From NCBI GenBank assembly GCA_015064095.1, contig SVSW01000001.1, positions 709 to 64,708 of the forward strand: a stretch of 64,000 nt of DNA, in the 5' to 3' direction. The position numbers were made by a program, and so were the translations under genes. The notes below the pieces were generated by a model. It had not been told where the DNA came from, searched no databases, and saw only the letters and a program-made list of their open reading frames with translations. This DNA comes from Oscillospiraceae bacterium (lineage in GTDB: Bacteria; Bacillota; Clostridia; Oscillospirales; CAG-272). Numbering within the stretch: the stretch's first letter is position 1; each line of letters starts with the position of its first letter. This document shows, one piece after another, positions 5 through 25,425 of the stretch.

Positions 5-1660
5 ATGGATTTCATCAACATGACGATCGGCGATTGGATGGACAAAGTCGCCGCCGAAAACCCCGACCATCCTGCAGTCATTTTCACCCACGATTTTGAC
101 TACACGCGAACCTACAAGGAATTTAATGACGAGGCGCACACGATCGCCAAAGCCTTCCTCAAAATGGGAATTAAAAAGGGCGACCACGTTGCGATCTGGG
201 CAACGAACTACCCCCAGTGGCAGCTCACGCTCTTTGCCTGCGCGAAGATCGGTGCAGTGCTCGTAACAGTAAATACAGGATATAAGATCCACGAGGCAGA
301 ATACCTCTTAAAGCAATCCGATACGAAAATGCTCGTTATGTGCGACGGATTTAAGGATACGAGCTACGTTGAGATCATGAACCGCCTTTGCCCGAATATC
401 GAAGATCGCGCAAATATCGAATCAAAGCGTTTGCCCGTGCTGAAGAAGATCGTTACGATCGACGAGGAAACGCATGAGGGTATGTATAACTGGCGCGAGC
501 TTTACGATATGAGCCGCGATATAACCGACGAGGAATATGCCGAAGCCAGAAAGGGTCAAAGCCCTCACGATGTCATCAATATGCAGTACACATCGGGCAC
601 CACGGGATTCCCGAAGGGCGTTATGCTGACGCATTATAATATTTTGAACAACGGAAAAACCATAGGCGACCGCATGAAATTCACAAAGAACGACCGCCTT
701 TGCATCACAGTACCGCTTTACCACTGCTTTGGTCTTGTGCTTGCGACCATGGCGAGCATCACGCACGCAACGACTATGGTCCCCGTTAAATATTACAGCC
801 CGATAAAAGTGCTTGAGGCTTTGCAAAACGCAAAATGCACTGCCGTTCACGGTGTGCCGACGATGTTTATTGCGATGCTTGAGCACCCGCGCTTCAAGGA
901 ATTCAAATTTTATCTGCGCACCGGCATCATGGCAGGCTCGCCCTGCCCCATCAAGGTCATGCAACAGGTCGTTGACGATATGGGCATGAAGGAGATCACG
1001 ATCGTTTACGGTCAGACCGAGGCATCACCCGGCTGCACGCAGACAACGACGGACGACACCCTTGAGCGTCGTGTCAGCACTGTCGGCCGTTCCTTCCCCG
1101 GCGTTGAAACGAAAATTATCGATCCCGAGACGGGCGAAACGCTCGGACCCGGTCAGGTCGGTGAGTTCTGCGCACGCGGATACAATGTTATGAAGGGATA
1201 TTACAAAATGCCCGAGGCGACCGCCCAAGCGATCGACAGCGAGGGCTGGCTCCATACGGGTGACCTTGCAACCGTTGACGAGGAGGGCTATTATAAGATC
1301 ACCGGCCGTATCAAGGACATGATAATTCGCGGCGGCGAGAATATTTACCCGAAGGAGATCGAGGATTTCATATACACTCACCCGAAGGTGAGCGACGTTC
1401 AGGTCGTCGGCGTGCCGAGCAAGGCATACGGCGAGGAGATCATGGCTTTCGTTATCCCGAAGGAGGGTGAGGACTTGACAGAGAAAGAGATCAAGGATTA
1501 CGTTCTCGGATCTATGGCAAAACACAAAGTGCCGTCATTCGTTTCCTTTATCAAGGAATTCCCCATGAACGGCGCAGGAAAGATACTCAAATACAAGCTG
1601 CGCGAAATGGCGATCGAGGAAAAGGATCTGCACGACGCAGCGGCAATAGAAACTGCATGA
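5..1660 (+). CDS. AMP-dependent synthetase/ligase (acyl-CoA synthetase family)
   Basis: 551-aa ORF with adenylate-forming core motifs: YTSGTTGFPKGV, TGDLA, GRIKDMIIRGGENIYP and a C-terminal GKILK. Confidence 0.85.
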   Translation: MDFINMTIGDWMDKVAAENPDHPAVIFTHDFDYTRTYKEFNDEAHTIAKAFLKMGIKKGDHVAIWATNYPQWQLTLFACAKIGAVLVTVNTGYKIHEAEYLLKQSDTKMLVMCDGFKDTSYVEIMNRLCPNIEDRANIESKRLPVLKKIVTIDEETHEGMYNWRELYDMSRDITDEEYAEARKGQSPHDVINMQYTSGTTGFPKGVMLTHYNILNNGKTIGDRMKFTKNDRLCITVPLYHCFGLVLATMASITHATTMVPVKYYSPIKVLEALQNAKCTAVHGVPTMFIAMLEHPRFKEFKFYLRTGIMAGSPCPIKVMQQVVDDMGMKEITIVYGQTEASPGCTQTTTDDTLERRVSTVGRSFPGVETKIIDPETGETLGPGQVGEFCARGYNVMKGYYKMPEATAQAIDSEGWLHTGDLATVDEEGYYKITGRIKDMIIRGGENIYPKEIEDFIYTHPKVSDVQVVGVPSKAYGEEIMAFVIPKEGEDLTEKEIKDYVLGSMAKHKVPSFVSFIKEFPMNGAGKILKYKLREMAIEEKDLHDAAAIETA

Positions 1661-21783: not shown

Positions 21784-21791
21784 AATCAGGC

Positions 21792-21830
21792 AAAAGGACA
21801 GAGAATGTAAAAATCATTCTCTGTCCTTTT
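21792..21830. terminator. bidirectional intrinsic terminator
   Basis: 16-bp stem AAAAGGACAGAGAATG / CATTCTCTGTCCTTTT between convergent genes. Confidence 0.8.
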
Positions 21831-21858
21831 GTTGTTGGTATGCAATTGTTATTTTTTA

Positions 21859-23496
21859 CTAAATCAGCTCATTTTGGCTTGCGACAAGGCTCTTTGCTCC
21901 GTATATCTCGCGAAGCTTCGGCTTCTCGATCTTTCCGGTAGGATTTCGCGGCACATCGGCAAAGATCACTCGGCGCGGACGTTTATAGCGAGGCATTCCC
22001 TCGCAAAATGCATTAAGCTCGTCTTCTGTCAGGCTCGCGCCCTCCTTGAGCTCAACTATCGCTGCGGCGATCTCACCAAGACGCGCGTGAGGCAGTCCTA
22101 TAACCGCGACGTCCTTTACTGCATCGTGCTTTCTTATGAAATTCTCGATCTCGACGGGATAGAGATTTTCTCCGCCCGTGATAATAACGTCTTTCTTTCT
22201 GTCAACGAGGTATATAAAGCCCTCGCTATCCTCTCTTGCCATATCTCCGGTCAAAAGCCAGCCGTCGCGCAAGACCTCATTCGTTGCCTGCTCGTTTTTA
22301 TAGTAGCAGCTCATAACTCCTGGGCCCTTCACGCAAAGCTCTCCGACCTCGCCGGGCTTGACGGGCTCGCCGTCATTTCCGATGATCTTGGTATCCCAGC
22401 CAAAGCCTGCTTTGCCTATCGCGCCGACCTTATGTATATTTTCAACGCCGAGGTGCACGCAACCGGGTCCTATGGATTCGGAAAGGCCGTAGTTCGTATC
22501 GTAATCGTGCTTCGGGAAAACGGATTTCCAGCGTTTTATAAGAGAGGGCGGCACCGGCTGTGCGCCGATGTGCATAAGTCTCCACTGCGAAAGCCTGTAA
22601 TCATCAAGATCTATCGCTCCGCGCTCAATATCATCAAGCATGTCCTGCGCCCACGGAACAAGCAGCCAAACGATCGTTGCCTTCTCTTCCGAGATCGCCT
22701 GAAGCACCCACTCGGTCTTGACCCCGCGCAAAATTACCGCGCGGCTTGCCGAAAGCAAGCTTCCGAACCAATGCATTTTTGCTCCCGTGTGATAAAGCGG
22801 AGGAATGCAAAGAAACACGTCATCGTGCGTTTGGCTATGATGCGCCTGCTCCGCGCGGCACGCGTGCATTAAACTTTCGTGCTTGTGCAAAATTGCTTTT
22901 GGGAAGCCCGTTGTTCCCGACGAGAAGTATATAGCTGCAAAATCATCGTCCAAGATCTCGACCGGAGGCACAACGGTTGAGCAATAATAAGTCATCTGGT
23001 CGTAATTATCCGCATATTCGGGCGTTTCTTCCCTTTTGCCGACGAAGAAATAATCATCGATCTTCATATCCGCGCGAACGGCGTCAACGCGCTCGGTAAA
23101 TTCCGGACCGAAAACGAGCATATTGACATCTGCAAGATCAACGCAGTATTTGATCTCCTCTGCGGCATAACGGTAGTTCATAGGAACGGCGAGCGCGCCC
23201 GTCTTTAAAATTCCGAAATATATCGGCAGCCATTCAAGGCAGTTCATAAGCAGTATTGCGACCTTATCGCCCTTTTTTATACCGCGTGTGAACAGCAGAT
23301 TGGCAAAGCGGTTTGCCTTAATATCAAATTCGCGCCAAGTCATCTCGCGGCGGTATTTTTCACCCGACGCTTCAATAAGATTATATTCACGCCACGTAAC
23401 GTTCGTTTCGGGCTGATTTGCCGGATTTATTTCGACCAGACTGATCTCCGTCGGATAAAGCCGCGCGTTTCTTTCGAGTATTTCTGTAATCGGCAT
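21859..23496 (-). CDS. AMP-dependent synthetase/ligase (adenylate-forming, acyl/aryl-CoA ligase-like)
   Basis: 545 aa. Motifs YFSSGTTGFPKAI, YGLSE, TGDMA, DRKKDVIITGGENLYP and GKIEK. Starts 12 nt downstream of the symporter stop, with an AAGGAAAA RBS. Confidence 0.85.
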   Translation of the reverse strand: MPITEILERNARLYPTEISLVEINPANQPETNVTWREYNLIEASGEKYRREMTWREFDIKANRFANLLFTRGIKKGDKVAILLMNCLEWLPIYFGILKTGALAVPMNYRYAAEEIKYCVDLADVNMLVFGPEFTERVDAVRADMKIDDYFFVGKREETPEYADNYDQMTYYCSTVVPPVEILDDDFAAIYFSSGTTGFPKAILHKHESLMHACRAEQAHHSQTHDDVFLCIPPLYHTGAKMHWFGSLLSASRAVILRGVKTEWVLQAISEEKATIVWLLVPWAQDMLDDIERGAIDLDDYRLSQWRLMHIGAQPVPPSLIKRWKSVFPKHDYDTNYGLSESIGPGCVHLGVENIHKVGAIGKAGFGWDTKIIGNDGEPVKPGEVGELCVKGPGVMSCYYKNEQATNEVLRDGWLLTGDMAREDSEGFIYLVDRKKDVIITGGENLYPVEIENFIRKHDAVKDVAVIGLPHARLGEIAAAIVELKEGASLTEDELNAFCEGMPRYKRPRRVIFADVPRNPTGKIEKPKLREIYGAKSLVASQNELI

Positions 23497-23508
23497 AATT
23501 TTTTCCTT

Positions 23509-25047
23509 TTATTCAAGATGTTCTTTTATACTTGTTGTAACTTCCTTGTCGTAGCACGAGAACGTGTCATCAAGGAGCTCTTTTTTAGGCTTTGGCGTCA
23601 AGAGGCTGACGATCGGCACGATCACAAAGCCTGCAAGCATCGTAAATGCTCCGCAGTTGATCGGCGACTGAAGCCATACGGGGAAAAAGCTCTTTGCGAC
23701 CATATTAAGAACCATGACAGTCACGCCAAAGCCGAAGCAGACCCAGGTTGCTGCTTTTGTCGTTCTTTTCCAGTATAGGCTGAAAAGATACGGTGCAAGG
23801 AATGCGCCGGCAAGCGCGCCCCAGGAAATTCCCATCAGCTGTGCTATAAAGACCGTGTTTGCCTTGTATTGCAGGATCGCAATAAAGGCGGAGATCACCA
23901 CAAAGAATATAATAAGCACGCGCATCGTTGTCATCTGCGTATTTTCCTTCATATTCTTGACAACATTTCCCTTTATAAGGTCAAGCGTGAGCGTCGAGCT
24001 TGACGTCAAAACAAGAGATGAAAGCGTGGACATGGACGCCGAAAGCACGAGGATCACGACAACTCCGATAAGAACTGCCGGCAGATCCTTTAACATTGCG
24101 GGTATGATGGCATCAAAGCCCTCTTTTGCAACGTCAACGGGGAAAAGTCTTCCAAAGCCGCCGAGGAAGTAACAGCCGCCGGCAACGATAAGCGCAAATA
24201 CCGTTGAAATGATAGTTCCCTTTCTGATCGATTTCTCGTCCTTTATCGCGTAAAACTTGCCGATCATCTGCGGCAATCCCCACGTTCCGAGTGAAGTGAG
24301 AATTACAACGGAAAGCAGATCAAAAGCATTGGGACCGAAGAACGATGCGTATGCACCCGGAACGGTGCTGTCGCCCTTGACATTTGCAAGCTGCTCAAGC
24401 GCCGCCGTAAAGCCGCCCTGTCCGTTCAGCACAGAGGCGATGACCGCCACAATACCGATGAGCATTATAATTCCCTGAATAAAATCGTTGACCGCCGTCG
24501 CCATGTAGCCGCCGACAACAACATAAATGCAAGTAAGCACCGACATTCCGACGATACACCAAATATAATCAATTCCGAATGCCATTGAGAAAAGTCTTGA
24601 AAGTCCGTTGTAGAGCGATGCGGTGTACGGGATCAAAAATACAAAAATAATGATAGACGCACCGATCTTAAGAGAGGGGCTCGCAAAACGTTTGCCGAAA
24701 TAATCTGGCATCGTTGCCGTTCCGAGCTTTTGCGTGATCAGCCTTGTGCGGCGTCCCAGTATAACCCACGCAAGCAACGAGCCGATAAGCGCATTTCCGA
24801 TCCCTATCCAAGTTGATGCAACGCCGAACTTCCAGCCGAACTGACCTGCGTATCCTATAAATATGACCGCAGAAAAATACGATGTCCCGTACGCAAACGC
24901 TGTCAGCCAAGGGCCGACCGAGCGTCCGCCGAGGACGAAGCTGTTAACGTCTGTTGAGTGACGTCGGCAACGTATACCGACATAGATCATCACGCCGAAG
25001 AACACGACGAGCATAGCCACCTTGATGATCATTTCAATAGGATCCAC
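23509..25047 (-). CDS. sodium:solute symporter (SSS family, PutP/PanF-like)
   Basis: 512 aa with about 13 hydrophobic segments. N-terminal FVLGGRSVGPWLTAFAYGTSYFSAV is typical of SSS. GTG start 5 nt after AGGAGGA. Confidence 0.85.
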   Translation of the reverse strand: MDPIEMIIKVAMLVVFFGVMIYVGIRCRRHSTDVNSFVLGGRSVGPWLTAFAYGTSYFSAVIFIGYAGQFGWKFGVASTWIGIGNALIGSLLAWVILGRRTRLITQKLGTATMPDYFGKRFASPSLKIGASIIIFVFLIPYTASLYNGLSRLFSMAFGIDYIWCIVGMSVLTCIYVVVGGYMATAVNDFIQGIIMLIGIVAVIASVLNGQGGFTAALEQLANVKGDSTVPGAYASFFGPNAFDLLSVVILTSLGTWGLPQMIGKFYAIKDEKSIRKGTIISTVFALIVAGGCYFLGGFGRLFPVDVAKEGFDAIIPAMLKDLPAVLIGVVVILVLSASMSTLSSLVLTSSSTLTLDLIKGNVVKNMKENTQMTTMRVLIIFFVVISAFIAILQYKANTVFIAQLMGISWGALAGAFLAPYLFSLYWKRTTKAATWVCFGFGVTVMVLNMVAKSFFPVWLQSPINCGAFTMLAGFVIVPIVSLLTPKPKKELLDDTFSCYDKEVTTSIKEHLE

Positions 25048-25077
25048 AAGATCCTCCTTTCTCGGAGGGTATAAAAT

Positions 25078-25350
25078 GAAAAAGCCCTCCGCATCAAAAT
25101 TGATACAGAGGACGGATACACCGTGTTACCACCTCAATTCACCGCACTCTCACGGGTGCGGCCTCAAAGGGTACAAAAAATACCCCACCGCTTTAACGGG
25201 CGTACCCGTTGCCGCCTACTCGGATCTCTCCTTTCGGGGCACAGCTCACGAAATGTATTCGGCTACCGTCCACCTGCGATCTTTCACCGACCGATCGCTC
25301 TCTGCAAGGCTTTCCGATACCTACTTCTTCCCGGTCACAGCTTTTAATGG
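25078..25350 (-). promoter_or_regulatory. T-box leader RNA (tRNA-sensing riboswitch); specifier read as UAC (Tyr)
   Basis: All sequences below are minus-strand RNA.
- Stem I contains GCAGAGAGCGAUCGGUCGGUGAAAGAUCGC, which has the AG bulge and the GGUGAAA distal loop.
- The specifier loop reads GAA-UAC-A-UUUC (the codon is + strand 25255-25257).
- Stem III is GCCGCAC...GUGCGGU.
- The T-box sequence is AAUUGAGGUGGUAACACGG (+ strand 25121-25140).
- The terminator is GUCCUCUG...CGGAGGGC followed by UUUUU (25078-25113). Confidence 0.75.
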
Positions 25351-25354
25351 AACC

Positions 25355-25383
25355 ATTTTAGCACCATTTTTTTCGTTTGTCAA
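25355..25383 (-). promoter_or_regulatory. sigmaA-type promoter for the T-box leader
   Basis: Minus strand: TTGACA, 17-nt spacer, TGcTAAAAT. Confidence 0.6.
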
Positions 25384-25393
25384 TAGTTTTAAT

Positions 25394-25425
25394 AAAAAAA
25401 GAAGACCCGCGGGTCTTCTTTTTTT
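25394..25425. terminator. bidirectional intrinsic terminator
   Basis: GAAGACCC-gc-GGGTCTTC flanked by an A-run and a T-run, downstream of the minus-strand gene 25434-25751. Confidence 0.75.

Follow-up and report, generated by a model that had tools for sequence, protein, structure and literature searches.

The 64,000-nucleotide stretch analyzed here (the window; contig SVSW01000001.1, positions 709 to 64,708, from the Oscillospiraceae bacterium assembly GCA_015064095.1) carries on its reverse strand a two-gene operon, in which a T-box leader RNA precedes the gene of an SSS-family solute symporter and that of an acyl/aryl-CoA ligase of the ANL superfamily, hereafter LIG (Table 1). An original prediction, made from the letters of this stretch, had described a T-box, a symporter and a 545-residue ligase starting 12 nt further on behind its own ribosome-binding site. 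All of these parts were found where it had placed them, including the 12-nt gap and an AAGGA ahead of the ATG of LIG. A bidirectional terminator at about 25395-25425 separates the operon promoter from the preceding gene, and downstream of the leader terminator the only terminator-like hairpin before the operon end is a weak one (5 pairs, 22828-22815) within the ligase gene. This layout, with its short gap and its terminators, fits the earlier claim that the two genes form one transcript, and we infer from the operon anatomy that they are co-transcribed.

The leader matches the Rfam T-box model RF00230 over its full length (model positions 1-219), with 116.2 bits against a gathering score of 93 (E 4.9e-25). 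Its specifier loop reads GAA-UAC-A at 25260-25254, where the Tyr codon UAC occupies 25257-25255 and is followed by a purine. The T-box core, AAUUGAGGUGGUAACACGG at 25139-25121, carries the AGGUGG variant and includes a UGGU bulge at 25131-25128, which can pair with the ACCA end of tRNA-Tyr(GUA), a tRNA present in a single copy in the genome, on contig C37. The leader terminator folds with a minimum free energy (MFE) of -30.5 kcal/mol (z = -3.18), and none of 200 shuffled sequences was as stable. For Stem I, a plain MFE fold gave z = 0.36, and its structure was taken from the Rfam structural alignment instead. Of the eight T-boxes found in the genome (1.39 Mb, 92% complete), only the leader in this operon has a Tyr codon. 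By its sequence, this leader is an ordinary class-I Tyr T-box, for which tRNA-dependent antitermination is predicted.

The first protein of the operon scores 194.5 bits against PF00474 (SSF, threshold 22.8, residues 37-431), and it stays under every NCBIfam equivalog cut-off, more specifically 197.5 bits for PutP (cut-off 515.5), 167.4 for PanF (328), and 43-50 for ActP (at least 750). The TIGR00813 superfamily model gives 176.8 bits, with a cut-off of 184. Because all of the equivalog cut-offs are missed, no named symporter specificity applies.

LIG shows 243.5 bits with PF00501 and 57.2 bits with PF13193, and all of its ANL motifs are intact (SSGTTGFPK at 192, TGD at 416, DRKKD at 432, and PRNPTGK with K522). 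Its AlphaFold2 model (pLDDT 83) has the two-domain ANL fold, with TM-scores of at least 0.8 to 4-coumarate-CoA ligase and ACSM2A. The best of the 25 NCBIfam models listed, all of them sub-threshold, is PRK06187 (406.3 bits, cut-off 476). The PaaK model TIGR02155 is absent from these 25, and LIG is not a member of the PaaK family, whose proteins have about 430 residues. The nearest solved structure is FadD13 of Mycobacterium tuberculosis (PDB 3r44; 30% identity, E 1.5e-74; Foldseek E 3.5e-46), and feruloyl-CoA synthetase (28%) and 4-coumarate-CoA ligase (25%) are nearly as close in both sequence and fold. Since these three enzymes are almost equidistant from LIG, homology alone gives no substrate. 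The placement of LIG outside the ordinary fatty-acid-CoA ligases, on which the original prediction depended, agrees with the missed PRK06187 cut-off, with an identity of 22-30% to solved ligases, whether fatty-acyl, feruloyl or coumaroyl, and with the association of the family with an indolepyruvate/arylpyruvate:ferredoxin oxidoreductase (IOR) described below. LIG as an ordinary FadD or long-chain fatty-acid-CoA ligase was rejected by the curated cut-offs and the synteny. The family is tight, with identities of 74-93% for the database relatives listed, 68-80% across the 80 retrieved loci, and down to about 60% for orthologues throughout the order, which suggests one conserved function.

The genomic context of LIG was surveyed in the best 80 of at least 599 matching stretches from a species-representative collection. 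Matching stretches come mostly from gut and rumen Clostridia, and the surveyed loci belong mainly to Acutalibacteraceae, Oscillospiraceae, Lachnospiraceae, and Christensenella-like metagenome-assembled genomes (MAGs). LIG is followed by iorA and iorB, the genes of IOR, in about 32 of the 80 loci, usually together with paaK and an ACT protein gene, with gaps commonly of 3-30 nt. An SSS gene stands beside LIG, on either side, in about 27. In 30 loci, LIG or the SSS-LIG pair is immediately preceded by a T-box, whose specifier is UAC in 29 of them (GAA-UAC in 25; GAAU-UAC, one base off position, in 4) and UUC in one, which, along with the UAC of the window, bears out the earlier claim of an aromatic codon. 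At least 11 of these 30 T-boxes head a whole LIG-iorAB(-paaK-ACT) string with one leader. The window is the split form of this arrangement, in which only the transporter and the ligase are under the T-box.

Three variants of these loci differ from the common layouts. The single UUC (Phe) specifier, a one-base switch from UAC, occurs in the T-box of a LIG-iorAB operon (L015:199-439). In a few relatives, such as that of L055 (cluster c15), the T-box operon has an extra gene of about 270 residues between SSS and LIG. The cultured rumen cellulolytics Ruminococcus flavefaciens and R. albus (L075, L076, L085) have LIG proteins of about 70% identity, with no T-box, symporter or IOR gene nearby.

As a control, we used 20 IOR loci (L096-L115) from LIG-negative genomes of the same order, 17 of which were scanned for T-boxes with Rfam. 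Their recurrent layout is SSS - PaaK2 - iorA - iorB - PaaK1 - ACT, in which the PaaK proteins fall into two distinct clades, and the ACT protein of such operons may act allosterically. The slot before iorA is filled by the PaaK2 paralogue in 17 of the 20 loci, and these proteins form a single clade with 100/100 support. LIG-positive operons carry the downstream PaaK type only (17 of 17). Because PaaK2 occupies this position where LIG is missing, LIG and an enzyme of the arylacetate-CoA-ligase type are alternative occupants of one slot. None of the 17 scanned control loci has a T-box at the Rfam gathering score, which indicates that the Tyr T-box goes with LIG; the T-box as a general feature of IOR operons was rejected on this count. 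An SSS homologue lies upstream in 12 of the 20 control loci, with 57-64% identity to the symporter of the window in eight and about 40% in four, and symporters beside LIG show 58-75%. In an order-wide sample of 151 genomes (46 LIG-positive and 105 LIG-negative; kin genomes are not independent, and the counts are descriptive), the IOR alpha subunit is present in 45 of the 46 LIG-positive genomes, compared to 48 of the 105 LIG-negative ones.

The original prediction had placed the rest of the pathway outside the window and pointed to an arylpyruvate oxidoreductase elsewhere in the genome, and such a cluster, iorA-iorB-paaK-ACT, was indeed found on contig C13. The iorA fragment scores 415 bits across model positions 204-595, and iorB 270.5 bits against a cut-off of 230. 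The missing 5' end of iorA was sought in the assembly with the N-termini of relatives and was not found. On TIGR02155, the PaaK-like protein of the cluster reaches 582 bits, whereas PRK06187 gives it only 38.

The linkage to iorAB, the Tyr T-boxes, the exchange in the slot before iorA, and the co-occurrence with IOR support the salvage of tyrosine from an arylacetate, as had been proposed, and make it probable that the operon in the window is the uptake-and-activation half of such a route, gated by tRNA-Tyr. Uncharged tRNA-Tyr would pair with the leader at its UAC specifier and its UGGU bulge, which would stabilize the antiterminator and permit read-through into the operon. The symporter, predicted to be an arylacetate importer, would bring in the acid, most likely 4-hydroxyphenylacetate, with which the fermentation of tyrosine commonly ends in the gut and the rumen. 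LIG, a predicted 4-hydroxyphenylacetate (arylacetate)-CoA ligase, would convert this acid into 4-hydroxyphenylacetyl-CoA with ATP and CoA, ATP being cleaved to AMP, and it may function like PaaK, whose operon slot it fills without being a member of that family. The IOR of contig C13, encoded with paaK and ACT, would then use reduced ferredoxin and CO2 to carboxylate the thioester reductively to 4-hydroxyphenylpyruvate, from which a transaminase would form tyrosine. The window would encode the first three steps, i.e. tRNA sensing, import and activation. We infer from sequence comparison and gene context what the symporter and LIG act on, that IOR runs reductively, and which role the route has in the cell.

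A simpler view of the operon is that the symporter imports tyrosine, or amino acids in general, and that LIG is carried along as a passenger whose acyl-CoA role is general or unrelated. Amino-acid transporters are common in T-box regulons (PMC2494555), and among its sub-threshold NCBIfam matches the symporter scores best with the proline transporter PutP, at 197 bits. Nevertheless, in more than 12 genomes the T-box lies directly before LIG with no symporter nearby, and symporter homologues also precede PaaK2 in the IOR operons that lack a T-box. Moreover, the SSS-LIG pair is found in both gene orders, which points to a functional coupling of the two proteins. We consider a plain amino-acid importer with a passenger ligase very unlikely.

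The tyrosine branch of the source genome was also inspected. The aromatic cluster pheA-aroB-aroC-aroEK-aroQ-aroA-tyrA-aroG is otherwise complete, but codon 28 of tyrA, its last gene but one, is an in-frame TGA. This codon directly follows the GxGxxG motif and encodes Lys or Arg in relatives. The remainder of tyrA is intact and 52-63% identical to five close orthologues. This TGA may be a recent inactivation giving a pseudogene, a polymorphism, or an error in the MAG. In the order-wide sample, tyrA falls under the Pfam cut-off, and is counted as missing, in 23 of the 151 genomes; 11 of these 23 (48%) are LIG-positive, compared to 27% of the tyrA-positive genomes. In one genus, all four sampled genomes are LIG-positive, IOR-positive and tyrA-negative.

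Several observations weigh against tyrosine salvage from 4-hydroxyphenylacetate as the role of the operon. No T-box is present at 50 of the 80 LIG loci, among them those of the two closest relatives (80% identity). Many LIG genes are solitary, with no IOR nearby, as in R. albus and R. flavefaciens. In the source genome itself, IOR lies outside the T-box operon, and the region upstream of iorA on C13 is unassembled; the same genome already encodes a PaaK-type ligase besides LIG. The closest solved or curated relatives of LIG are uninformative on its substrate. The LIG of L015, with its Phe specifier, shows no substitution in the pocket and differs in conserved columns only at Y300H and E491D, which argues for a broad arylacetate specificity over a strict one for 4-hydroxyphenylacetate, and LIG may accept arylacetates broadly. 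Finally, tyrA is kept in 35 of the 46 LIG-positive genomes, and the route is not generally essential. Since most LIG-positive genomes keep tyrA, the salvage is more likely to be a cheaper supplement to the shikimate pathway in most cases, and only sometimes a replacement for it.

Part of these observations would also be explained if LIG activated a different aromatic compound related to Tyr (3-(4-hydroxyphenyl)propionate, 4-hydroxyphenyllactate or p-coumarate, for instance), whose product would reach tyrosine, or serve another need under starvation, without direct carboxylation by IOR. The many LIG genes that do not adjoin IOR, the PaaK-type arylacetate ligase already present in the genome, and the structural proximity of 4-coumarate and feruloyl-CoA ligases, which are as near to LIG as the fatty-acyl ligases, are all in line with this view. 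However, where LIG has conserved neighbours, these are iorAB, at gaps of a few nucleotides, the thioester substrates of IOR are arylacetyl-CoAs, and LIG takes the slot of a PaaK paralogue. Among the neighbour clusters of LIG, there are also no recurrent genes of a dehydratase, an enoyl-CoA enzyme or an acyl-CoA dehydrogenase. An acid other than an arylacetate is, in our opinion, unlikely.

The direction of the pathway has to be considered as well, because IOR could oxidize arylpyruvates while the ligases run in reverse, making ATP from AMP and PPi to conserve energy, in which case the module would be catabolic and its link with the T-box incidental. An AMP-forming synthetase of Syntrophus aciditrophicus reportedly runs in this reverse direction. 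IOR is also classically an oxidative fermentation enzyme, with arylacetates as its usual products (PMC13285125). On the other hand, a T-box induces at low tyrosine charging, which is the opposite of what tyrosine degradation needs, the link with a Tyr-codon T-box is kept in about 30 species, and the co-encoded protein is an importer, not of the exporter type. A catabolic module is highly improbable in view of these features, and salvage of tyrosine from an arylacetate is the reading that we retain.

Three further T-boxes of the eight in this genome precede ANL ligases, and all three are on contig C26. One of them, with the specifier read as CUC (Leu), leads a FadD-like ligase at the very start of the window (PRK12583-like, 745 bits, 32% identical to LIG), which may act in leucine salvage as an isovalerate-CoA ligase. 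The other two, with Val and Ile specifiers, lie beyond the window end in units at C26:69265-71795 and C26:99315-101877, whose fusions of Cupin_2 with an MbcS-like acyl-CoA synthetase have 764 or 791 residues. The other four T-boxes of the genome lie ahead of pheST, valS, a trpB-like gene, and thrS, with codons that match these genes, which validates our specifier readings. Four of the eight T-boxes in the genome (Leu, Val, Ile, and Tyr) thus control acid-CoA ligases, and the Tyr module fits this genome-wide pattern of T-boxes and acid ligases.

The genome also encodes a four-subunit VOR, and ilvC, ilvD and leuB were not found in the 92%-complete assembly, which fits a formation of branched-chain amino acids from branched short-chain acids. 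Rumen bacteria are said, from the work of Allison and co-workers and of Kristensen in 1974, to carboxylate isovalerate, isobutyrate, 2-methylbutyrate and 4-hydroxyphenylacetate reductively, yielding Leu, Val, Ile and Tyr, respectively. As a tentative extension, which we hold to be possible rather than probable, the Leu, Val, Ile and Tyr T-boxes might form a tRNA-gated acid salvage regulon, in which each of them switches on a dedicated ligase whose product is carboxylated by VOR or IOR. With ilvC, ilvD and leuB not found and a stop codon within tyrA, the four amino acids would then derive, in this reduced genome, solely from the fermentation acids of other microbes, and LIG would represent a new, tyrosine-dedicated family of 4-hydroxyphenylacetate-CoA ligases.

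Table 1 Features of the T-box operon in the window and of related loci in the same genome. Positions without a contig prefix are those of the window; C and L prefixes denote contigs and retrieved loci.
Feature	Position	Strand	Family or model	Remarks
Promoter, sigma-A-type	25355..25383	-		TTGACA-17 nt-TAAAAT with TG extension; 11/12 matches, sequence read
T-box leader, transcriptional class	25105..25347	-	Rfam RF00230	
Leader terminator	25074..25113 (hairpin 25113-25084)	-		13 pairs and U-tract; 5' arm overlaps the antiterminator
Ribosome-binding site of symporter	25060-25052	-		AAAGGAGGA
SSS-family solute symporter	23509..25047	-	PF00474	512 aa; GTG start at 25047
LIG, ANL-superfamily acyl/aryl-CoA ligase	21859..23496	-	PF00501 + PF13193	545 aa; ATG start
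Bidirectional intrinsic terminator at operon end	21791..21831	.		17 pairs; next gene convergent
iorA-iorB-paaK-ACT	C13:1-3461 (L094)			Contig start cuts the 5' end of iorA
tyrA (prephenate dehydrogenase)	C45:66985-67500 (L095:6638-7495)	-		In-frame TGA
T-box, specifier read CUC (Leu)	C26:431-669, just before window start			88 bits; leads FadD-like ligase at window ~60-1660 (+)
T-box, specifier GUC-G (Val), as in the valS leader	C26:71577-71795			Leads Cupin_2 + MbcS-like acyl-CoA synthetase fusion
T-box, specifier AUC (Ile)	C26:101660-101877			Leads Cupin_2 + MbcS-like acyl-CoA synthetase fusion
VOR, four-subunit	C17:17952-20308 (L090)			VorB 535 bits, above cut-off

It has been known since labelling experiments of the 1960s that anaerobes of the rumen and the gut turn arylacetates and branched short-chain acids into amino acids. 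To our knowledge, few of the genes behind this conversion in Firmicutes, and little of their regulation, have been assigned, and annotations usually treat IOR as catabolic. The operon described here names candidate genes for the uptake and the activation of arylacetates, and it would extend the T-box regulon to CoA ligases and 2-oxoacid:ferredoxin oxidoreductases. It also indicates cross-feeding dependencies around 4-hydroxyphenylacetate, which is a precursor of p-cresol as well, and it may serve as a simple means of predicting which auxotrophies and growth factors apply to uncultured gut Clostridia. What appears to be new is the tRNA-sensing control of the aryl-acid route, the FadD-like ANL family as its putative ligase, and the dedicated SSS transporter. 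Full-text literature searches returned no description of a T-box-controlled arylacetate/IOR system, with a mention in Vitreschak 2008 or Porat 2004 being possible.

Among known systems, several share parts of this arrangement. With its UAC codon followed by a purine, its UGGN bulge, and its alternative terminator and antiterminator, the leader resembles that of Bacillus subtilis tyrS, and both are class-I transcriptional T-boxes. The tyrS leader, which we take to be the Tyr T-box with a UAC specifier described by Grundy and Henkin, controls an aminoacyl-tRNA synthetase, whereas the leader in the window controls a transporter and a CoA ligase. A 2008 survey of T-boxes names neither CoA ligases nor 2-oxoacid:ferredoxin oxidoreductases as targets (PMC2494555).

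LIG shares the two-domain ANL fold and the motifs of FadD13 (3r44), but only 30% of its residues. The regulatory logic is shared by the Val and Ile MbcS-like synthetases of the same genome, where a T-box for an amino acid likewise precedes a ligase for the acid that is one carbon shorter than the corresponding 2-oxo acid. Unlike LIG, these synthetases belong to another ANL branch, are fused to Cupin_2, come without a transporter, and presumably feed VOR.

The IOR of Bacteroides adjoins an AMP-forming ligase active on arylacetates, for which its authors suggest a biosynthetic role (PMC13285125). That ligase is probably of the PaaK type, judging from its colocation with IOR. The clustering of IOR with an AMP-forming ligase is common to both systems, although no link to a riboswitch is reported for Bacteroides, and LIG lies in a different ANL branch (545 compared to about 430 residues).

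A precedent in chemistry is the aryl-acid pathway of rumen bacteria and of Methanococcus maripaludis. Rumen bacteria reportedly convert arylacetates into amino acids, in studies attributed to Allison (1965) and Kristensen (1974). In M. maripaludis, aryl acids feed a second, IOR-dependent pathway to the aromatic amino acids (Porat 2004, as described in PMC4162585). The chemistry that we propose is the same, from an arylacetate to its CoA thioester, followed by reductive carboxylation by IOR and transamination, and the IOR genes are present. The system of the window differs from the Methanococcus and rumen pathway in being bacterial and under predicted tRNA-sensing control, in having a dedicated SSS transporter, and in using a FadD-like ANL ligase instead of, or besides, one of the PaaK type.

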